From positions 60,195-124,194 of IMG/VR virus record IMGVR_UViG_3300021431_000087: a stretch of DNA of 64,000 nt; one strand, given 5' to 3'. Below, one piece after another: positions 25,788 through 60,826 of this stretch (position 1 is the first letter of the stretch; the number at the start of each line of letters is the position of its first letter). A model generated the notes under the pieces. The model ran no database searches. It worked only from the letters and a program-made list of their open reading frames with translations, and had not been told where the DNA came from. The stretch is from a virus. Lineage: Duplodnaviria; Caudoviricetes. The position numbers and the translations under genes were made by a program.

Positions 25788-26013
25788 GAAATCTCCATCC
25801 ACGGGAGGTTTCGGCTGCCCAACCTGCTCTGGGTAGCCATTTTTTGCTAACTTATGATAACTGGTTGCCCATTTGTGATAAGGTATGCTAAACTCTTGCT
25901 AAATGAAGCTAAATTGCTCGCCTAAACGATTGTTTTTCAACCGTTTGCAATTACCTTTGCATCGAACCCTTAGAGGCCAAGAGCGCAAGGCCATAACACG
26001 GCGCAGCAAGAGT

Positions 26014-26922
26014 ATGAATACTACAAAGAAGTCATTAAGCGAGCAGGTAAACGAAGTGTTGAAAAGCAGGATGAGCCGCCCCAAGAAGCAGGAGGCCATC
26101 GTAAAGCTCGGCGTTACTCCTTTTGAGGCAATGTGCCTTGTGAGGAGTTACATGCCTGCCCCACGCCCACTACCATTCTCCTACACCTTCGGGGTAGAAA
26201 TTGAATGCGTAGGATGCCGATACACCGAGTTCTTCGCAGCAGCACGCCGCAACGGACTCGAGGTGATGGATCAGGTATACTACAACCACAGGGACATCCC
26301 CCAATTCAAGCTGACCACCGACTCGAGTATCAGCGGGCACAATCCCGCCGAGTGCGTCACCCCTGCCTTGAACGGCAACGACCAAGGTTTCGAGAGCCTC
26401 AAGGCTTGCTGCAAGAGCCTTCGGGAGATTGGCGCTACGACCAACTCCTCCTGCGGACTCCACGTACACATCGGGGCTGCAAGCCTTACCGACCTTGAGT
26501 ACTGCAACGTCTTCGTCAACTACATGAGGATGGAGACCGCCATCGAGAGCTTTCTTGCCCCGAGCCGCCGGGGTAGCTACGCAAGATGGTGCAACAGCCT
26601 CCGCAACCACGAATACGGTGTTCTTCACGCCACCACGAAAGAGCAGATGCGCTACGCCTTGAACAGCGACCGCTACCACAGGGTAAACCCCTGCGCCTAC
26701 GCCGCCCACAAGACCATCGAGTTCAGGCAGCACCAAGGCACTGCGAACTACACCAAGATAAGCCACTGGGTTAAGTTCTTGGGCAAGCTCGTAGAGTTCA
26801 GCAAGACTACCCGCCTTAACGCCGACATCAACCGCATCGAGGACATCCCTTTCTTGAGCGAGAACGATAAAGCCTACTTCTGCAGCCGCAGAGCCGAATT
26901 CGAGGCTCGTGCCGCTCGGTAA
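26014..26922 (+). CDS. Amidoligase (COOH-NH2 ligase type 2) family protein
   Basis: TFGVEIE, DSSI, ECVTP, SCGLHVH, RYHRVN, TIEFRQH; start set by the conserved leader. Confidence 0.9.
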   Translation: MNTTKKSLSEQVNEVLKSRMSRPKKQEAIVKLGVTPFEAMCLVRSYMPAPRPLPFSYTFGVEIECVGCRYTEFFAAARRNGLEVMDQVYYNHRDIPQFKLTTDSSISGHNPAECVTPALNGNDQGFESLKACCKSLREIGATTNSSCGLHVHIGAASLTDLEYCNVFVNYMRMETAIESFLAPSRRGSYARWCNSLRNHEYGVLHATTKEQMRYALNSDRYHRVNPCAYAAHKTIEFRQHQGTANYTKISHWVKFLGKLVEFSKTTRLNADINRIEDIPFLSENDKAYFCSRRAEFEARAAR

Positions 26923-27025
26923 CCACGGAGAGGCACAACTACCCCACCCGAGCGCAAAGAGCGCAACGGCGGGGCAGAAAACGGCAAAATATAGAAAATT
27001 AAAGTTTAACATCATTAAATAGACT

Positions 27026-27541
27026 ATGATAAAAGAAGAATGGAGACCGATAAAGGATTACGAAGGACTTTATGAGGTTAGCGACTTAGGCCGGGTTCGC
27101 TCTTTAAGAAACAAAAATCGCATCCTTAAACCTTCAAATAATCAAAACGGCTATCTGCAAGTGACCCTAAGCAAAGACAATAATATACAGGCGCTTCTTA
27201 TCCACCGTCTTGTAGCAAATGCTTTTCTTGACAATAAACAGAATCTGCCACAAGTAAATCATATAGATGAAATTAGAACAAACAATTTTGTTACCAACCT
27301 CGAATGGGTTACAGCGAAACAGAACTTGAAGCATAGCAACGTCTGTAAAGTTATGAAAGCCGCTGCCGTAAAAGCTTTGGAGAAACCCGTTAATATGTAT
27401 AACATGTATGGTGAGTTTGTGAAAAGATTTGAAAGTGCAACGAAAGCTGCGGACTTTATTGGTGGGTATCAACAGAATGTTAGTGCTTGCTGTTACGGCA
27501 AAATTAAATCCTACAAAGGATATGTATTTAGATTTGTTTAA
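27026..27541 (+). CDS. NUMOD4-HNH-NUMOD1 homing endonuclease
   Basis: EEWRPIKDYEGLYEVSDLGRVRS; HRLVA..F; VNHIDE..NN..NLEW. Confidence 0.9.
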   Translation: MIKEEWRPIKDYEGLYEVSDLGRVRSLRNKNRILKPSNNQNGYLQVTLSKDNNIQALLIHRLVANAFLDNKQNLPQVNHIDEIRTNNFVTNLEWVTAKQNLKHSNVCKVMKAAAVKALEKPVNMYNMYGEFVKRFESATKAADFIGGYQQNVSACCYGKIKSYKGYVFRFV

Positions 27542-27577
27542 CGATTAAATTAAAATAAAATAGAAAGGATAAACGTT

Positions 27578-28129
27578 ATGTGTGTAATAATAATTTCCCC
27601 AGCGGGTCATGCCCTCCCCACCAAGAAAGAGCTGAGGGCAGCGTTTAAGCGTAACCACGACGGATGCGGATTCGTCAGCGAGAGTGACCACTACAAGAGC
27701 CTCGATTTTGAGGATTTCTACGCAAGGCTAAAGAAAGTCCCGAAGAACGAGAACTGCATCATCCATTTCCGGTGGGCTACCCACGGCAAGGTGTCCCTTG
27801 CCAATTGCCACCCGTTCTATGACGAGAAATCAAATACGTGGTTCATGCACAACGGCATCCTCGCCATCACACCCTACAAGGGCAAGACGGACAGCGAGAC
27901 GGCTTTCAAGAAATACCTCGTCCCTGCTATCCGCACGTACGGTCTCTACTCGAAAGAGCTGCAGACCATCGCTCATAACATCATAGACTCGTCCAAGTTC
28001 GCATTCATGCAGAACGGGCAGATTAAGACCTTCGGACGGTTCATTGAATACAATGGCTGTTACTACAGCAACCTATACCACCTGCCATACACCGCCTTCA
28101 TCCAGAATAGGTGGACGTACGCAGGTTGA
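27578..28129 (+). CDS. Class II (Ntn) glutamine amidotransferase
   Basis: N-terminal MC, NHDGCG, HFRWATHG, NCHPF, HNG, TDSE. Confidence 0.9.
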   Translation: MCVIIISPAGHALPTKKELRAAFKRNHDGCGFVSESDHYKSLDFEDFYARLKKVPKNENCIIHFRWATHGKVSLANCHPFYDEKSNTWFMHNGILAITPYKGKTDSETAFKKYLVPAIRTYGLYSKELQTIAHNIIDSSKFAFMQNGQIKTFGRFIEYNGCYYSNLYHLPYTAFIQNRWTYAG

Positions 28130-31394: not shown

Positions 31395-31859
31395 CTATTC
31401 TTCTAAAGTTTTAACCCAAACTGTGCAACTGTTGTCATCCATACTGGTTAAATGCTTGTAGTAAAACGTACGTTCCACCACTCTATACCACTCTTGCTCC
31501 AACCTTACGGACTCTCCGACGTTCGGAACAACGGGACTGTCCTCCGTATGGAAAATCACATATTCCGAGTCTGGGTCTTGAAAAAATACTCTCATATCTT
31601 ATAAATCATGTTCTGCCAAATACTTTCTGCTCCATCCCTCGAAGGCATCGATATTCTTGAACTTCGGATGCGCCTCTATCACATTCCCGTCAAAAGTCAA
31701 CGTTCCGGCCTCCGCTCCTATGAAGCAATACTCAAAGCGTGATGCGTTCTTGCTGAATCCCAACTTGTAAACGGCATATATATCTCCATTTTCCTTCCTG
31801 TCGAGGTGCGCATGAGGTGTGCGCATATTTCTCGTTGCTGAAACTCTATGAAATCCCAT
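31395..31859 (-). CDS. Two small hypothetical ORFs (31395-31595, 31599-31859)
   Basis: Lead the luxS gene run; -7 element at 31876-31883. Confidence 0.55.
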
Positions 31860-31993
31860 ATTTTCTCTTTTTCGACAAAGATACGAATAAACATCGAGAA
31901 AACAACAAAAACTATGCTAAAGTATCTTATTGTAGGCATTTTTTGGCGATGTGTGCTAACAAAAGATAGTTAATACTAAACTGTGATTTTATA

Positions 31994-32025
31994 TTTGAAC
32001 GTTAAATAGTTTTATGTTATCTTTG
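31994..32025 (+). promoter_or_regulatory. Bacteroidota sigma-A promoter of the RAMP cassette
   Basis: TTTG 31994-31997, 20-nt spacer, TATCTTTG 32018-32025. Confidence 0.75.
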
Positions 32026-32080
32026 TGTCGTATTTAGTAAACGCCGCAAGGCATAGTAATAACAATTTATAACAGCGTAT

Positions 32081-32650
32081 ATGAAAACGTTAAAATTCCA
32101 AATTACGGGTACACGGCCTTTGATGCTGAATAACCCGCGAACTGTCAACCCATTTGACAAGTATTCAAAACTATTGAAGCCGCTGACGAGCAAGCGCACC
32201 AAGACCGAGGACGACCTCATGGAGATTTCCCGCCTCAAGTTCCTTGCCAGTTTGTACGTTGACGAAAAAGGTTATTTCCTCCCTCAGGAGTGCATCGAGC
32301 GTAGTATTATCGAAGCCGCCAAGGAGCGCAAACTCGGCAAGAAGTTTGAGCGCAGTTTCAACGTTATCGACCGTGCACCGCTTGACTTCAAGGACAACAA
32401 AAAGAAGCCTGAGCAACTTTTCGATATGGGTAATATGTACGTCGATGTCCGAGCCGTAGGCATCAAGAACGCTCGTATCACCACCACACGCGCCATCATT
32501 CCGAACTGGAGTGCCACCTTTGAGTGCTGGTTTGACGAAACCCAACTTGACGAGAAGGAGGTGCTTGACGTGTTGGAGATTGCTGGTCTTCGCTATGGTG
32601 TCGGCACGTACCGCCGCCTCTACGGACGATTCTCTGTGAAGAAGATTTAA
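32081..32650 (+). CDS. Cas7/RAMP-like RNA-binding protein (standalone phage RAMP)
   Basis: N-terminal beta strand + PLML, LP..CI..SI helix, thumb-like VGIKNARITTTR, C-terminal Gly-rich loop AGLRYGVGTYRRLYGRF; fold inferred by eye. Confidence 0.7.
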   Translation: MKTLKFQITGTRPLMLNNPRTVNPFDKYSKLLKPLTSKRTKTEDDLMEISRLKFLASLYVDEKGYFLPQECIERSIIEAAKERKLGKKFERSFNVIDRAPLDFKDNKKKPEQLFDMGNMYVDVRAVGIKNARITTTRAIIPNWSATFECWFDETQLDEKEVLDVLEIAGLRYGVGTYRRLYGRFSVKKI

Positions 32651-32664
32651 CGCTTCATATTTGC

Positions 32665-33248
32665 AGAGTAGTATAGCAATGCGTAGAAGAACTCCCGTGA
32701 CGGATTCCTTGCCGTGGTTCGACCCCACGGGCGGGAGCTATTCTCAGCTAAGTTTAGTAGAGCCTTGTGTAGACGAGACGAGTTTTGTTTAGCAAAGTTA
32801 TGCGCAGTTTAGTTAAGACGAACTCCCACAATGGTTGTATGTAAGGTTCGATTCCTTCAGTGGGAGCATTTAGTCCAGATTCGTAAAGCACAGTGGAGTG
32901 TAGTACAGTATGGCTCAGTTGAGAGAAGTTTAGTTCAGACCTGTACAGCAAAGACGAACTCCTATCATGGTGCAAGCATCGGTTCGATTCCGATGGTAGG
33001 AGCAAAAAGTTAAGTTCGGATTAGCAGAGTCCAGCGAAATATAGTTTAGCAGAGTAAAGAAGAACCCTCACTATGGTACAAGCCGTGGCTCGATTCCACG
33101 GGTGAGGGCAAAAAGTCCAGCAAAGACCAGTATAGCGAAGTGGTGTCTTGTATGGCTATGCAAAGCCATCCAAAGTTTAGCAAAGAACGGTTAAGTAAAG
33201 ACGAAGGCAGTAACGGTTCACGTTGGGGTTCGATTCCCCGAACTGCCC
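32665..33248 (+). ncRNA. Array of five 5-nt-periodic (WGH-NN) tracts, each followed by a tRNA-like element; putative guide-RNA array
   Basis: Tracts 32665-32689, 32746-32820, 32872-32956, 33008-33062, 33114-33203; tRNA-like elements 32692-32737, 32823-32866, 32959-33002, 33065-33108, 33206-33247. Confidence 0.85.
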
Positions 33249-33279
33249 AAAATGTTTAACATTTAAAACATAAGCGAAT

Positions 33280-33753
33280 ATGGAGAATAAAAAAGAATTG
33301 ACGGCAGAGGTGCTTAATCCTCTGATGGCTGAAATAGCCGAAAAGTTTGGTGACGGTGCGCTCATTCCTCACGAATGGCTGCGCAAGAAGTTCGACATCA
33401 AAGATCCTTCAATGGCTGACTGCGAAAGCGAAGAGGACTTTATCGCCAGACTGCGTGAGCAGCAGTTCCTCTATATGGGGTGCATCGACCAACTGCGATG
33501 GGCAATGCTTCAGAAAGAGCAAATGTACCTAAAGAACGAGTGGGGTGACGGATATTCCATCCTACTGCCAACAGAGCAGGTTTCTTTCGGCTACAACGAG
33601 TTTGTGAAGACCATCAAGAAAGCCACTAAAGAAGCGGATGCCATCATCAATAATGTGCGCCCCGTTCCCGACATCAACGCTGCGAAAGACAATGACATTC
33701 GTGCAAGGTTCGGGATGATGCGTGATATGCTGGCAAGCATAAAGAAAAGATAG
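33280..33753 (+). CDS. Accessory protein of the RAMP cassette, winged-helix-like
   Basis: YLKNEWGDGYSIL resembles a wHTH wing; helical C-terminus; same transcription unit as the array. Confidence 0.6.
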   Translation: MENKKELTAEVLNPLMAEIAEKFGDGALIPHEWLRKKFDIKDPSMADCESEEDFIARLREQQFLYMGCIDQLRWAMLQKEQMYLKNEWGDGYSILLPTEQVSFGYNEFVKTIKKATKEADAIINNVRPVPDINAAKDNDIRARFGMMRDMLASIKKR

Positions 33754-33786
33754 AATAGTTAATGTTAATTTGTACATATTTTGGCA

Positions 33787-33818
33787 AGCCTGTCCGTGAT
33801 GGATAGGCTCTGCTTTTT
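33787..33818 (+). terminator. Intrinsic terminator closing the RAMP cassette
   Basis: AGCCTGTCC-GTGAT-GGATAGGCT hairpin, then CTGCTTTTT; convergent with terL. Confidence 0.65.
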
Positions 33819-35238
33819 ATAGAAAATCTGACAATATTTGATCGTCAGACGCACCGCCTACAACCCCTCCTCTTTCAATAATCATCGTAAGGACATCTTC
33901 TGCGTCATCATGTGCATTTCTTCCTTCCTTTCGGTAACTTTTCACGGATGAAGCGAACTCTGGCCATCGACGTTCCCAATCCACAGGAAATACAATCATA
34001 TTGTTTACTTCACAAGCCCTTGTGAAGATTCTGACATTTTTGTTGTGGTGCTGCGTGAAAGTAATAAAAGTCGTTTTGTGGTTTTCGTACTCACGACTTA
34101 TACGTTCCACGTTTCTGGCAAAAGCCCTGCCTCCATTATTTGATTCAATGACACAATACCTTATCTCATATTTCGCTAAATCCTGCGCCAACATTTGTTC
34201 CGTTGCCTCTTGGCTTTTCTTTGTGTATATAACACTCGTCACGTAGTATCCATCTTTCATTGAAAGGTAGGTTATGCTACACAAATAATCCTCGCCAACA
34301 TCTGCGGTGTCGCAACAACAGCACATTGTCCCCAGCTTGACGGGAGGTAAAACTTCATAAGTACGAAATGCGTGCTCATAAAGCAAGCCTTCTAAAGGCA
34401 TAGGATTTTGTTGGTATTGTGTTTGAAAAACATACGAATTGGCAGCATTTATCTTATCAAGTTCCTCAAGTGTATGCTTGTATGGCCACAGTGCTTCACG
34501 CTCTCCGTTCTCGTTTATCTGTATAACTGGCAGTGATATCACCCGCCACTCGTCTGGTTCTATTTCCTGCAAATAGCCGCAGAGGTCATGCTCATGCAAA
34601 CGCTGCATGATAATGATAATGGGTGTGTTACGGGAATTGACGCGGTTTCTGATTGTTGTTTCAAAACGTCGGTTCACACGCTCACGGACAACATCGGAAA
34701 GGGCATCCTCCGGCTTGATAGGGTCATCGATAATGATCGCGCCACCAAAACGATACGGTTCACATTCCCTTTCGACAAGACCAGCACCGAAACCCGTAAT
34801 CTGACCGAGCGTAGATGTGGCGTACAAGCCACCTCCTTGGTCGGTTTCCCACTGAGATTTCATATTCTTTCCGTAGGTGATACGGGTAGGATAGAGCCGT
34901 TGATATTCTTCGTTTTGAACTATATTTTTTACGGCAATAGAGTTGTCTTGTGCAAGGTTGGCAGAATAAGAGAGGTGGATGAATTTGGCAGAAGGATTGA
35001 CGGCTAACCCCATAGCAATGAAGTTCTTTACTGCAAGTTCCGTTTTTCCATACCTCGGCGACAAATTAATAATAAGTTTATTACATTTTCCGTTAAGGAC
35101 ATCATCAAGGGCATCACAGATAAGCTTGTGGTGCCTGCCTATGATGAACTTCATGTCGTTGTTCTGCTTGAAGAAGTACCTTGTGAAGTTAAGGGAACTC
35201 TTCAGCGTCCAAGCCCTCAAAATGTCCGTGTCTGTCAT
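33817..35238 (-). CDS. terL: Terminase large subunit
   Basis: LIINLSPRYGKT Walker A, IIIDDP Walker B, IMQRLHEHDL, QYQQNP, IESNNGG, HDDAED. Confidence 0.93.
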   Translation of the reverse strand: MTDTDILRAWTLKSSLNFTRYFFKQNNDMKFIIGRHHKLICDALDDVLNGKCNKLIINLSPRYGKTELAVKNFIAMGLAVNPSAKFIHLSYSANLAQDNSIAVKNIVQNEEYQRLYPTRITYGKNMKSQWETDQGGGLYATSTLGQITGFGAGLVERECEPYRFGGAIIIDDPIKPEDALSDVVRERVNRRFETTIRNRVNSRNTPIIIIMQRLHEHDLCGYLQEIEPDEWRVISLPVIQINENGEREALWPYKHTLEELDKINAANSYVFQTQYQQNPMPLEGLLYEHAFRTYEVLPPVKLGTMCCCCDTADVGEDYLCSITYLSMKDGYYVTSVIYTKKSQEATEQMLAQDLAKYEIRYCVIESNNGGRAFARNVERISREYENHKTTFITFTQHHNKNVRIFTRACEVNNMIVFPVDWERRWPEFASSVKSYRKEGRNAHDDAEDVLTMIIERGGVVGGASDDQILSDFL

Positions 35239-36346: not shown

Positions 36347-36844
36347 TCAGCAGCTTTCCTCGATTCGTTTCAGCCATTCTTTCGCCTCGTCAGGGGTCAT
36401 TGATTGCGGAGCCATGCTCTCTCCGTTGGTGGTAACGTCCACCTGCTTCTTAACCGCACCGAACTGACGGTCACGAAGAAGGTTCATCGTTCCCGTTTTC
36501 CCATTCTTCATATCCCACATTGCAGCCATCGCAAGGGTACGCATATAGACTGGTGTCTTCTCACTCTTTGCAATTGCCTGCAAGGCGGTCGTGTCAAGGG
36601 AAAGTACCATCAGCTCGATTGCATGAATCTCACTGTCATCAAGCATCGTATTCTCCTTGACCTGCTTTACTGTCAGCAGACCTTCCATCAGCTCCTTTAC
36701 ACGGCTTTTCGGTCTGCCTTTCGGGTTTCCCGACTCACCGGGCTTCCAGCGGGGCTTGATATGCTCCTGCCCCTTCTTGGAACCTTCGGTCATGCCTCTG
36801 CGGTTGCCTTTCTTGTTTAGTTTTAACTCTTCGTCCATACTCAT
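36347..36844 (-). CDS. DUF5681 protein, probable terminase small subunit
   Basis: WKPGESGNPKGRPK; QVDVTTNGE; upstream of terL. Confidence 0.75.
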   Translation of the reverse strand: MSMDEELKLNKKGNRRGMTEGSKKGQEHIKPRWKPGESGNPKGRPKSRVKELMEGLLTVKQVKENTMLDDSEIHAIELMVLSLDTTALQAIAKSEKTPVYMRTLAMAAMWDMKNGKTGTMNLLRDRQFGAVKKQVDVTTNGESMAPQSMTPDEAKEWLKRIEESC

Positions 36845-36878
36845 ATATTTAAAAATTCCGTTATTTTTTATCTCTTAT

Positions 36879-39071
36879 TTATGTATTACACAAATTGTCA
36901 AGCTCCTCTTTCGTGAAGATTTCCATGATATTCGTCTGCGTGCCGTCTGGATTGATTCTAAACACATCTGCATAGTTGCCGCGCAGCTTAATGTAGCGGA
37001 AAATTATAACCTTCACGTAATGGGGTGAAAGCTCACAAAGTCGTGCGCTGCGACCGAGCTGCTCGGCGGCGATAAGGGTTGTTCCGCTTCCAGCGAATCC
37101 GTCATAGACAACGTCGCCCTTCTTGGAAGAGTTCTTCATAAGATAACCGAAAAGACCGACGGGTTTCATGGTCGGATGCAGTACCGATTTTGTCGGTCTG
37201 TCCCAATCTATCACGGTCGATTGCTTTCGGTCTGAATACCAGTTGTGTGCTGCACCGTCCTTCCAACCGTACAAGCAGTTGTGCGTAATTATTCCGTCGG
37301 CGATATAATGATGATGTTTCTCCACGGCAAGGGAATATACCATGCCGTCAAATGGCTTATAATCAACTTTTTCTATAACCTCCCATGTAAAATTTGGGTT
37401 GTCCTTCCCGTTGCCAGTAGGTATAGGCACCTGCATCAGTTCAGGGATAAGGTTACAAGCGTTGATTTTAGCCGTCACCCTTGTGCTGAAACGCTGTCCA
37501 ACAGTCAGTTTGGTTATTAGCGGGAAACGCTCCGAACGTCCAAAGTCATGCAGTAAACGATACGCATTTTCTCTTAACAATTCCAAGTCCAACGCATCAT
37601 AAATATCCGCTATCTGCTTTTCATTCCGTACATTTTCCGTGACAGCCATCCCTCTCTCAACTTCCCAATGGGTATAAGGTATACCATATTTAACCGCAAG
37701 AATCTGCTCACCTACTTGGGCATCCAGTCTGTTGTCATACAATTCAATAAGCCACGCTTCCTCCGCCTTCTCTTGTGATAGTCTGCTCTTTAAGCCGAAC
37801 TGACGTGCATCGTATGCTCTTGTATGACCTACGCGCCACCAATTTCCACGACGCATAAGATAAGTGCAATATGCTTTCTTGCAATTGCCATTGAAACGTA
37901 TGCTGAAATCATGGTTGTCTGTCGTTTTTGTGGTATGTTCTCCTACAGAAATGGAATACAACAGCCCATCGTAGTGTCTGCTTGCCGTTTCTATAGCATA
38001 ACCCCCGTTTCTATATCCAACTACCTGACCACTAAGCGAATCATAAGAAATAACCCTGTCTCTATTTGTTAGGGTCTCTATTGGCTTGACACCTTCTATC
38101 GTCTGTACAAGCGTACCTGCTGGCTGACATGGCTCATGTTTCCAGTGATAGTCCTGCCTTCCGAGGACAAGGCTGTTCTTGTTCCAGATAAGGTTCTGCC
38201 GCAAGTCCATGTCACCGATATTGATAAGAGCCTTCCTAAAGTAGAAAGAGTAGGAGTCGGAATGGAAAATGTAGTATGTGCCGCCAGCCTTAAGGTTCGC
38301 CTTTGCCTCGGTAAAGGCATCGGTCAGGAAAAGCTCAAAATTATCGTTGCTCATCTTGTCGTTAAGGACAACAAGACCGTCAGCGCGCTGCTTTCCACTT
38401 TCCTCATACCCATAGGCTACATTATAAGGTGGATCGGTAAGCCAAAGGTCTGCCTGCTCCCCATTGGGGAATAGCCTGCTTACGCATTCCTGCTTCGTAG
38501 AGTCACCGCATAGCAGCATATGCCTTCCGAGCTTCCAAAGGTCGCCCTCTTGAACAATGTCGTCTTCAAGCACGTCATCCTGCTCAAAGTCATCATCCTC
38601 CTCTACGGTGCTTTCCTCCTGTGGTGTCGGGGCTTCCTCGGTATTATCCTCCACAGCCTCTCCGATTTCGGGAATATCAATAGCCGCGAGTTCTATCTCG
38701 TCCATTGACCATTCGTCAATGAGCAACTGGAAGTCCCACTCACCGAAGCCGCTGTTGTCCTTCAGGGCGATGCGGTGAATCTTGTCCATAGGGAAACCGT
38801 GGTGCAGTATCTTACATGGTACCTCCTTGTAGCCAAGTTCCTTCATGGCACGGTAGCGCATGTTACCGCCAACCACCACATAACCGAGGGAAGGATCGTC
38901 GGTGTCATAGACTATCAACTCGCGCAGTTCGAGCATCTCCGGGTCATCCTTGATGCTCTGCACAAGTTTCTTGTACTTCTCGTCACGTATAAAGCGGGGG
39001 TTTTTCTGTAGTCCCTTCACCTGCCCTATATTTGGGAACACCTGTCCTATCGGCAGCAATTTTGTCTCCAT
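36879..39071 (-). CDS. ParB-N + N6/N4 DNA methyltransferase containing an intein
   Basis: NPRFI..ParB-N, CGDST, TDPPYN, HPTMKPV, DGFAGSGTT. Confidence 0.9.
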   Translation of the reverse strand: METKLLPIGQVFPNIGQVKGLQKNPRFIRDEKYKKLVQSIKDDPEMLELRELIVYDTDDPSLGYVVVGGNMRYRAMKELGYKEVPCKILHHGFPMDKIHRIALKDNSGFGEWDFQLLIDEWSMDEIELAAIDIPEIGEAVEDNTEEAPTPQEESTVEEDDDFEQDDVLEDDIVQEGDLWKLGRHMLLCGDSTKQECVSRLFPNGEQADLWLTDPPYNVAYGYEESGKQRADGLVVLNDKMSNDNFELFLTDAFTEAKANLKAGGTYYIFHSDSYSFYFRKALINIGDMDLRQNLIWNKNSLVLGRQDYHWKHEPCQPAGTLVQTIEGVKPIETLTNRDRVISYDSLSGQVVGYRNGGYAIETASRHYDGLLYSISVGEHTTKTTDNHDFSIRFNGNCKKAYCTYLMRRGNWWRVGHTRAYDARQFGLKSRLSQEKAEEAWLIELYDNRLDAQVGEQILAVKYGIPYTHWEVERGMAVTENVRNEKQIADIYDALDLELLRENAYRLLHDFGRSERFPLITKLTVGQRFSTRVTAKINACNLIPELMQVPIPTGNGKDNPNFTWEVIEKVDYKPFDGMVYSLAVEKHHHYIADGIITHNCLYGWKDGAAHNWYSDRKQSTVIDWDRPTKSVLHPTMKPVGLFGYLMKNSSKKGDVVYDGFAGSGTTLIAAEQLGRSARLCELSPHYVKVIIFRYIKLRGNYADVFRINPDGTQTNIMEIFTKEELDNLCNT
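37278..38129 (-). mobile_element. Intein (284 aa) in the methyltransferase
   Basis: KHEP|CQPAGTLV...TTDNH...YSLAVEKHHHYIADGIITHN|CLYGW. Confidence 0.9.
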
Positions 39072-47342: not shown

Positions 47343-47386
47343 AATCGTAACAGATTAACATTCAAAACTCATATATTAAATTTCTG

Positions 47387-47460
47387 CGGATGTGGCTGGA
47401 TTCAAACCAGCGGCCTATTGGTTAACAGCCAATTGCTCTGACCTTCTGAGCTACACAACC
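47387..47460 (-). tRNA. tRNA-Asn(GTT)
   Basis: GGTTGTG acceptor, ATTGG-CTGTTAA-CCAAT anticodon arm; T-loop TTTGAAT variant, one acceptor mismatch. Confidence 0.85.
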
Positions 47461-47467
47461 ATTTTCG

Positions 47468-47539
47468 TTGCGGAAGATGGGTTCGCACCATCGACCTCCT
47501 GGTTATGAGCCAGGCGAGCTACTACTGCTCCATTCCGCG
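47468..47539 (-). tRNA. tRNA-Met(CAT), initiator-like
   Basis: CGCGGAA/TTCCGCA with C1xA72 mismatch; CCTGG-CTCATAA-CCAGG. Confidence 0.88.
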
Positions 47540-47631
47540 ATATGAAAGGCATCCTCCGCTATCCCATGTGCCGCTGCCCTGTGTGCGAAGTACGGCGGAT
47601 CAATCCGTGCGGCTTCCTTTATGCCTTTTTG

Positions 47632-47716
47632 CGGAGAGTGAAGGATTCGAACCTCCGAGCCATTTCTGACTGACACGTTAGCAACATGTTGCTTTCGACC
47701 TCTCAGCCAACTCTCC
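47632..47716 (-). tRNA. tRNA-Ser(GCT)
   Basis: GGAGAGT/ACTCTCC, ACATG-TTGCTAA-CGTGT, long variable arm, GGTTCGAATCC. Confidence 0.9.
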
Positions 47717-60075: not shown

Positions 60076-60826
60076 TTAAAATAGCGACAGCTGCCTTGTC
60101 TCTTCCCATATCCTCTGCTCGGCAATCTTGCAATAATTGTTGGATATTTCAGAACCGATATATTTCCGTTTCAGCTTTGTTGCCATCAAGGCAGTCGTCC
60201 CGCTACCCATAAACGGGTCATAGACCAAATCACCCTCCTTGCTGCAACATTTAATGATATTGCCGACAAGGAGCTTGGGAAAAGGTTCGGGATGCTTCGT
60301 ATTCGTCTCGAAGTTGATGTTCCACACGTTTTGTCTGAAGGCGGACTGTGACTTATCGAAGAAGACGTTCTTCGGGTCTTTCACAATCCAGTAGATATAT
60401 TCGGTTATAGGCTGGAAATAATGTGGGTCATTGGCGCAGCTGCTTCCTCTATTCCATATTATCTGCTGATGAATACTGAAGTCGTACACCCATTTGGGCG
60501 GGATAATAACGCCGTCCACAAGAATATCCTTGTGGTTATAGAATATACTGCCCGTTGGCTTTAGGACTCGGATGCACTCGCTTAGAATGTTTCTCTGCCA
60601 TGCCTCATAAGCCTCTTGCGGCATATTATCGGAATAGGTGTCGTAAGCTATCTGGTCGCCCACGCATGGCCGACCAGAACCCGCTTGTGCCCTTGTCTGT
60701 TGCGTATGCGTTCTTGTTGTACGGCGGCGACGTTACAATAAGGTCAATGGAATTGCTTTCAAGACGCTGTAGCGTATTCATGCAATCCTCGTTAAAGATA
60801 ATATTTGTATCCATAGTGTTTACCAT
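60076..60826 (-). pseudogene. N4/N6 DNA methyltransferase split by a 1-nt frameshift
   Basis: TSPPY half (60626-60826) and HPEPFP/DPFMGSGTT half (60076-60663) join if one base near 60654 is removed. Confidence 0.75.

Follow-up and report, generated by a model that had tools for sequence, protein, structure and literature searches.

The 64,000-nucleotide (nt) stretch of viral DNA analyzed here (Duplodnaviria; Caudoviricetes), which we call the window, covers positions 60,195 to 124,194 of the 124,194-bp IMG/VR record IMGVR_UViG_3300021431_000087. Within it, at 31931..33901 on the + strand, lies a 1.97 kb cassette made up of a gene for a Vipr protein, an array of five-nucleotide repeats and a homolog of the gene vap1. 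With a probability of roughly 0.8, we regard this as a working VIPR of the SUSP1 kind (vipr, vap1 and a vrRNA array), an accessory cassette of a large ruminant-gut Bacteroidota phage, with guides that would be released by RNase P and RNase Z and aimed at rivals. VIPR, a CRISPR-related form of RNA-guided DNA silencing, was first described in 2026 (10.64898/2026.04.26.720920,.720927, 10.64898/2026.10.15.759431, 10.64898/2026.10.21.760802). According to the searchable text of these preprints, which is the scope of everything said of them below, Vipr protomers polymerize along a vrRNA of GGY/NN pentamers; the fixed trinucleotide is flipped out and the NN pairs with DNA, one target base being skipped per unit. 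This non-contiguous NN code was shown by experiment, and its effect is the transcriptional silencing of competing mobile elements.

A full-length Vipr protein

The 189-amino acid (aa) protein encoded at the start of the cassette is a true, full-length Vipr homolog. Its residues 1-187 match PDB chain 36pp_D, the 'SUSP1 Vipr protein' (phmmer, E 1.1e-28), so that the resemblance to VIPR proposed in the original prediction, which was made from the sequence alone, proved to be correct. The product also falls in phrog_4652 (PHROGs, E 5e-44). The same gene was found by tblastn in 130 phage records, mainly Felixounavirus of Escherichia, Salmonella and Shigella; all of these matches are below 60% identity, and those listed are at 37%, the value also given by BLASTP for the Felixounavirus protein (2e-38). 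A Pfam search with both cassette proteins returned no family.

The AlphaFold (AF2) model of the window's Vipr, made with 21 homologs, has a predicted local distance difference test (pLDDT) score of 92.6, and its top Foldseek matches are Csm3, Cmr4 and type VII Cas7 (E about 1e-5, probability 1.0), in agreement with the RAMP-type protein that had been proposed. At the level of the overall fold match, the RRM core, glycine-rich loop and thumb of RAMPs are all present. The Gly-rich C-terminal motif, G-V-G-T-Y-R, aligns with the G-loop of SUSP1, G-V-G-D-W-R, and the residues that are invariant in the 21 homologs are retained.

The pentamer array

The two open reading frames (ORFs) are separated by a gap of 629 nt that parses into tracts of 5, 15, 17, 11 and 18 pentamers, 66 in total. 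Position 1 is predominantly A (A52/T9/G4/C1; 79% A), position 2 is G in 64 of the 66, position 3 is never G (T33/C19/A14/G0), and positions 4 and 5 are free (0.08 and 0.03 bits). This recount reproduced exactly the tract lengths and base counts first reported. The consensus that came with them, AGY-NN, stands as A1-G2 followed by NN, with the correction that position 3, which includes 14 A, is 'not G' rather than strictly Y. The sequence AGA(C/A)G-AA closes all five tracts, as had been observed. The autocorrelation of G within the array peaks at lags 5, 10 and 15, and in a scan of the 124-kb genome for AG periodicity the array was the sole place to pass. Two other explanations of the tracts, coding sequence and simple tandem repeat, were rejected, given the free positions 4-5 and the lack of an ORF.

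All five tracts had been taken as guides, a view that can be kept for four of them. Tract 1 is probably a constant leader, because it has only four variable dinucleotides and because a contig from a bovine metatranscriptome of another study (X19) is identical there and diverges after the first of the structured modules that follow the tracts. X19 equals window positions 32546-32739 bar one base and covers the 3' end of vipr, the leader and module 1, after which, beyond 32739, it continues into a different pentamer guide. It thus indicates that leader and module 1 are conserved while guides vary, and says nothing on processing.

The trinucleotide, AGH/AGY and not GGY, lies inside the 'related consensus' that the VIPR papers allow. 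Non-canonical repeats of the forms WGT/NN, TGH/NN and GAC/NN (10.64898/2026.10.21.760802) and 'YNNNG' repeats (first VIPR paper) are also on record. An AGY scaffold alone therefore does not make a new variant; the suggestion of a distinct one had named the tRNA-like separators as well.

The features of the cassette, with two related sites elsewhere in the window, are as follows (window coordinates).

31931..33901, + strand: whole VIPR cassette; in blastn against the relative G001, homology runs up to 31930 and again from 33902
31994..32025, + strand: putative promoter of Bacteroidota type, read from the sequence; TTTG at 31994-31997, 20 nt, TATCTTTG at 32018-32025
32081..32650, + strand: vipr, 189 aa, Cas7-like RAMP (PDB 36pp_D, phrog_4652, AF2 and Foldseek)
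32665..32691, + strand: probable leader tract, 5 pentamers, 4 variable dinucleotides; X19 identical throughout
32692..32738, + strand: tRNA-like module 1 (model R1, E 2.3e-6); 7-bp acceptor stem, 13-nt linker, T arm, discriminator C
32746..32822, + strand: probable vrRNA guide 2, 15 pentamers (14 variable plus constant AGACG), from the array parse; predicted target L171:1141-1181
32823..32867, + strand: tRNA-like module 2 (R1, E 2.5e-11)
32872..32958, + strand: probable vrRNA guide 3, 17 pentamers, from the array parse; best predicted target the amidoligase motif in L186
32959..33003, + strand: tRNA-like module 3 (R1, E 4.6e-12)
33008..33064, + strand: probable vrRNA guide 4, 11 pentamers, from the array parse; target not found
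33065..33109, + strand: tRNA-like module 4 (R1, E 4.3e-10)
33114..33205, + strand: probable vrRNA guide 5, 18 pentamers, from the array parse; predicted target terL of relatives
33206..33248, + strand: tRNA-like module 5 (R1, E 9.8e-8); weak mascRNA-like match in Rfam
33280..33753, + strand: vap1 homolog, 157 aa (phrog_5926; BLASTP to the Felixounavirus gene)
33787..33817, + strand: intrinsic terminator from a terminator scan; 10-bp stem, hairpin at 33787-33809, then a T run
34354..34404, - strand: own terL site, homologous to the guide 5 target; 24/34 = 71%, predicted not to be targeted
25903..26922, + strand: own Amidoligase_2 gene (PF12224, E 1e-28), homolog of the guide 2 and 3 targets; predicted not to be targeted

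tRNA-like modules between the guides

Each tract is followed by a module of 44-46 nt, five in all, that combines an acceptor stem with a T arm and so mimics half a tRNA. It is built of an acceptor-type stem of 7-8 bp, a linker of 11-13 nt with a conserved A-Y-G-G-T that stands in for both the D and the anticodon arms, and a T stem of 4-6 bp closed by the 7-nt T loop TTCGAyy; an unpaired C follows the stem in all five, and CCA is not encoded. The modules are tRNA-like and are not tRNAs. ARAGORN found no tRNA at the locus, and Rfam gave no tRNA match at E<=1 and no tRNA or ribozyme family there, only sub-threshold matches. With 27 different modules, taken from ten other loci besides the window, RNAalifold recovered both stems, and 10 of 11 pairs had compensatory changes. 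The covariance model R1 gave 56 matches in 371 kb, all on the vipr strand and inside arrays just after vipr. Five of these are the modules of the window (E 5e-12 to 2e-6), and none fell on the window's three real tRNA genes, in a clade with short separators or at SUSP1-like loci. The tRNA-like separators that had been suspected from the sequence are thus borne out by covariation.

The features of a minihelix-type substrate of RNase P and RNase Z are all present: a coaxial acceptor/T-arm stack of about 12 bp, a 7-nt T loop and an unpaired discriminator. Since bacterial RNase P and RNase Z recognize the acceptor/T-arm stack in minihelix substrates, we infer that these host enzymes cut the array transcript into guides, and by this analogy the modules most likely recruit both. 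RNase P would cut on the 5' side of a module and RNase Z after the discriminator base, cuts that would free the guides from the mRNA and from one another. The three tRNA genes of the window (47386-47716, - strand; Asn-GTT, Met-CAT and Ser-GCT) also have no encoded CCA, and the maturation of such tRNAs would need 3' cutting of the RNase Z type. In a group of related loci (L039-L045, e.g. L042:3081-3122) a module stands straight after the vipr stop, ahead of any tract, a position that fits a punctuation role. The same loci have an extra long tract 3' of vap1 (e.g. L042:3745-3840).

A different role for the modules is possible, though we think it unlikely: they could stay attached to the mature guides as 3' tails, much as the pseudoknot does in SUSP1, and there cap or nucleate the Vipr filament and protect the 3' end, while the 5' ends are made in some other way. 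In SUSP1 an invariant structured tail follows every tract and is kept on the vrRNA; here there is likewise one module per tract, joined to it by the constant AGA(C/A)G-AA junction, and guide plus module come to 105-140 nt, near the published length of about 100 nt. Retained tails would not, however, account for a module that has no tract before it, as in L039-L045, and the L002/L005 group lacks the junction motif. What the modules have kept (the stack, the T loop and the GG of the linker) is also just what RNase P and RNase Z require in general. A mixed case may also apply, with cutting by RNase Z and retention of the tail on the guide.

A second alternative, which we consider very unlikely, is that the modules serve mainly as homology handles for the swapping of guide cassettes between co-infecting phages, as a recombination-based substitute for CRISPR adaptation, with processing as a lesser role. 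X19 would fit such exchange, being identical through the 3' end of vipr, the leader and module 1 and then carrying another guide, and phages with different guides have near-identical modules. The five modules within the window's array nevertheless differ a good deal from one another, which would make them poor substrates for homologous exchange, and divergence after a conserved element is expected of hypervariable guides under any model. Release of the guides by RNase P and RNase Z remains the reading that we prefer.

Repeat position 1 and residues 17 and 177 of Vipr

In the text of the SUSP1 cryo-electron microscopy paper, G1 of the repeat is contacted by H17 and D177. At the aligned positions the window's Vipr has N17 and T177, while K33, R138, R179 and an aromatic residue at 178 are kept. 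Across the related loci, those with H17/D177 have G at repeat position 1 (73-97%), those with N17/T177 have A (72-97%), and the H17/T177 loci (32, many of them near-identical) are mixed, with 63% G and 29% A. N17/T177 in place of H17/D177 thus goes with A1 in place of G1, and the alignment suggests that the two residues may select the base. The comparison of one sister pair, the L007 group and the L039 group, supports the link between residue and base. The H17/T177 loci L007-L038 carry GGT and AGT pentamers within one guide (e.g. L008:3119-3363) and look like an intermediate specificity. The substitutions tried in SUSP1 guides in the first VIPR paper included GGY>AGY, and silencing was lost when GGY motifs were perturbed.

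Predicted targets

Targets were searched with the published rule of a 1-nt skip (NN-x-NN-x), in comparison with skips of 0 and 2 and with shuffled guides; the papers' threshold for targeting is an 80% match. The non-contiguous NN code put forward in the original prediction is the one established in the VIPR papers, and three of the four guides have predicted targets that fit it. Guide 2 matches at 27/28 in L171 (1141-1181), where the shuffled maximum is 22 and the carrier's own copy scores 16/28. L171 is a single contig, retrieved by a metagenome scan with a 20-base sub-pattern of guide 2; of the 8 bases that this sub-pattern left out, 7 match as well. The site is read antisense to a PF12224 amidoligase gene and covers its final twelve codons and stop; the product of this gene is 41% identical to that of the phage's own gene at 25903-26922. 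An Amidoligase_2 gene and a class-II glutamine-amidotransferase-like gene occur in the same order in the window (25903-28075) and in L171 (571-2273).

Guide 3 scores 26/32 in L186, at the central conserved motif of an amidoligase (shuffled maximum 22; own copy 22/32), and 25/32 and 24/32 in other amidoligase homologs. Guide 5 scores 28/34 in the terL of G001/L083 (shuffled maximum 24; own copy 24/34) and 27/34 in many other terL genes among the 76 homologs tested; the best site is that of G001, a close relative without VIPR. For these three guides, none of 200 shuffles reached the observed scores, and skips of 0 and 2 gave scores at control level. The guides have no cross-matches to the other target gene family. 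At all three sites the pairing runs in phase with the codons, and the base skipped is the wobble base. Taken together, the matches predict that guides 2, 3 and 5 point to real targets in rival phages, with the carrier's own copies spared: these score 57-71%, which for the own terL site is below the 80% threshold. In the phage's own genome no guide matched above the shuffled control at skips of 0-2, nor did its guides give anything above control against the 80 Vipr loci of relatives.

Exact patterns were also used for database scans. Dinucleotides 1-10 of guide 5 gave no match in viral contigs, dinucleotides 8-17 gave three AT-rich chance matches there, and dinucleotides 3-12 gave none in metagenome contigs. 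Sub-patterns of guides 2, 4 and 3 gave none in viral contigs, and the exact pattern of guide 3 gave none in genome contigs. Guide 4 had three exact 20-base matches in genome contigs, in unrelated metagenome-assembled genomes of Flavobacteriaceae, Betaproteobacteria and an uncultured proteobacterium; these were put down to chance, because about one is expected at that database size.

The guides of relatives (n = 154), searched against the fetched DNA, gave 13 matches of at least 85% with a skip of 1, compared with one with a skip of 0 and four with a skip of 2. With a skip of 1, some match the 3' end of vipr in another phage at 23/24 (L047:2128-2192 and L052:2000-2064 against L049:608), and L008:3119-3203 matches L007:3932 at 30/32, in DNA just 3' of vap. 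The guides of these relatives appear to aim at VIPR loci, which has been reported of the SUSP1 family too.

A VIPR remnant, inactive or in decay, with guides that have lost their function, seems highly improbable to us. Such a reading would agree with the finding of no 100% target, with guide 4 as an orphan and with the lack of an RNA contig over the array. Both ORFs are intact, however, with the invariant residues kept, G2 is present in 64 of 66 pentamers, the five modules score well with R1, and guide 2 fits a natural gene at 27/28. All of this speaks for a working system.

The vap1 homolog

By sequence comparison the 157-aa gene is a vap1 homolog. Its product matches phrog_5926 (E 2.3e-15), the same family as the Felixounavirus gene directly 3' of vipr (7e-76), with which it aligns (BLASTP E 5e-9), and a vap1 homolog lies 3' of the array in every related locus with tRNA-like modules. 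A sequence search of the PDB with Vap gave nothing. The model (pLDDT 88.9) has a weak list of Foldseek matches, best E 0.09, dominated by winged-helix DNA-binding domains, a resemblance that is suggestive at the level of a predicted fold.

Relatives, host and RNA

In a large protein collection, 137 Vipr homologs from gut metagenomes were found at 47-70% identity, a few of them named, with the labels Phocaeicola, Muribaculaceae and Ruminococcus. The terL of the window is 47% identical to that of Bacteroides fragilis phages, and the sequencing runs in which parts of the stretch occur bear the labels goat, sheep and bovine gut.

Viral vipr loci were fetched (n = 80), and nearly all have period-5 tracts beside vipr, in line with the periodic arrays that had been expected beside homologs. 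The SUSP1-like group (35-42% identity) has H17/D177, GGY/NN repeats and arrays mostly upstream of vipr, with no tRNA-like module. The window's group has T177 with N17 or H17, AGY or mixed (G/A)GT repeats and one tRNA-like module per tract; the split between D177 and T177 has 100/98 support. A derived clade (L047-L065) has N17/T177, AGY repeats, separators of about 11 nt and no detectable vap1. Its AGY/NN arrays are long (e.g. L055:3084-3574), with up to 7-9 tracts and spacers of the type A-T-A-T-C-C-A-A-A-y-y-T.

In the metatranscriptome of the source sample, an RNA contig starts at 32049, 3' of the promoter motif, which is a weak hint of transcription from it.

Location of the cassette

The two ORFs, 32081-32650 and 33280-33753, are on the + strand between - strand genes at 31599-31859 (the side of an 86-aa gene) and 33817-35238 (terL), as originally described. 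The promoter and terminator assigned to this unit were also found again, the former in the sequence as TTTG-N20-TATCTTTG, which we take to be the Bacteroidota -33/-7 promoter form, and the latter by scan as a hairpin with a T run.

The closest relative found, G001, is 119.6 kb long and about 90% identical in nucleotide sequence around the cassette site (blastn). At the point where the window has the 1.97-kb cassette, 88 bp separate terL from the 86-aa gene in G001, in which no Vipr homolog was found. As homology to G001 stops at 31930 and restarts at 33902, the cassette is seen as an insertion. The terL of G001 (L166:16385-18766, which is G001 36385-38766) encodes 793 aa compared with 473 aa in the window, with an intein-like insertion near the C-terminus and a nested 214-aa ORF (L166:17983-18627) that is HNH-type endonuclease-like.

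The claimed absence of cas1/cas2, cas3/cas10 and CRISPR repeats can be upheld for Cas1 (PF01867), which was not found in the 124-kb genome while control genomes were positive; no dedicated search was made for other cas families or for CRISPR repeats. In the ORF list around the two-gene cassette there was no Cas7 with Cas5 and a large subunit and no 25-40-nt CRISPR RNA (crRNA) repeats. A remnant of a type III CRISPR system was rejected, no partner genes having been seen in that list.

Proposed mechanism and its weight

The genes vipr and vap1 are probably transcribed together with the array, as one RNA from a single promoter. After release of the guides, Vipr protomers would coat each guide, one per pentamer, holding A1-G2-Y3 and exposing N4-N5, which would pair with double-stranded DNA as NN-x-NN-x. 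The four guides would be aimed at rival phages, guides 2, 3 and 5 at homologs of the carrier's own genes that have diverged far enough for self to be spared, and binding would silence transcription with the help of Vap1, by analogy with SUSP1.

Several results count against this interpretation. Metatranscriptome contigs from the source sample span 32049-32696 only, bearing in mind that contigs cannot show RNA ends, small RNAs or absence. Scans of viral, genome and metagenome contigs gave no 100% target for any guide and none at all for guide 4. Since the matches of guides 3 and 5 (81-82%) fall on protein motifs that are conserved, shared ancestry with the true target would account for part of the score. 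The module might not be cut off but remain at the 3' end of the guide, as the pseudoknot does in SUSP1. The correlation at residues 17 and 177 rests on few independent changes, and a second sister pair, L046 (H17) and L066 (N17), does not clearly show the link. The fold search with Vap1 gave weak winged-helix-type matches, best E 0.09.

VIPR has been studied in two proteobacterial systems, and the locus extends it to large phages of gut hosts of Bacteroidota type. If host tRNA-processing enzymes do release the guides, nature would have its own version of the engineered tRNA-guide arrays, and VIPR a way of freeing guides besides the pseudoknot tails and hammerhead separators already published. 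H17N together with D177T may switch GGY to AGY, which, if true, would offer orthogonal Vipr/guide pairs for multiplexed silencing. Predicted amidoligase and terminase targets, with self spared, fit the published role of VIPR as a weapon between competing viruses. A more far-reaching view, which we think quite unlikely, is that tRNA modules form a general second route of guide maturation, with host RNase P and RNase Z in the place of Cas6, and, being conserved where guides differ between phages, may also act as recombination handles that renew the guides in a primitive way, while the N17/T177 pocket makes an AGY-specific Vipr that is orthogonal to GGY systems. The gain is incremental, since the family, the code and non-GGY repeats are already known, as is targeting between phages. 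The tRNA-like separators and the 17/177 link do not occur in the searchable text of the VIPR preprints, where the terms 'tRNA' and 'tRNA-like' are absent.

Comparison with known systems

The window's Vipr shares the RRM core, G-loop and thumb with RAMPs of the Cas7 family (Csm3, Cmr4, type VII Cas7). It differs from them as a single small RRM protein with a period of 5 and three flipped bases, compared with a period of 6 and one flipped base. Cas7 systems have cas10, cas5, cas6 and cas1 partners, whereas the cassette has none, Cas1 being the only one of these that was searched for.

The separators resemble MALAT1 mascRNA (RF01684) and engineered polycistronic tRNA-guide RNA arrays in placing a tRNA mimic beside a functional RNA for release by RNase P and RNase Z. 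These are eukaryotic or man-made and have a fuller cloverleaf, and the likeness is one of function, not homology. In the hammerhead-interspersed vrRNA arrays of VIPR types I and V (first VIPR paper), a structured RNA between the guides would likewise cut the array. Hammerheads cut themselves, whereas the separator of the window has no ribozyme features and would need host tRNA-processing enzymes.

Arrays with a period of 5 beside Vipr-like folds and with non-GGY repeats are described in 10.64898/2026.10.21.760802, and WGT/NN fits the window's clade well. On such repeats, the searchable text of that preprint and of the first VIPR paper ('YNNNG') gives motifs and folds only, without tRNA-like modules, predicted targets or a link to the G1 pocket.

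The nearest system is the type II VIPR of SUSP1 (Vipr, Vap1 and four vrRNAs; PDB 36pp), from which the cassette differs in several respects. SUSP1 has G at position 1 with H17/D177, where the window has A (79%) with N17/T177; its tail is a pseudoknot instead of a tRNA-like acceptor/T-arm module; and its order is vrRNA1 - vipr - vap1 - vrRNA2-4, compared with vipr - array - vap1. The targets of SUSP1 are in a satellite, while those predicted here are other phages' homologs of the carrier's own genes, and the host of the window's phage would be a gut organism of Bacteroidota type. The two have in common a homologous Vipr (37%) and vap1, guides of 10-17 pentamers in which three bases are fixed and two are free, and a structured element per tract. 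In both, the 1-nt skip fits natural targets, rival mobile elements are hit, or predicted to be hit, with self spared, and the system is phage-borne and without cas genes.

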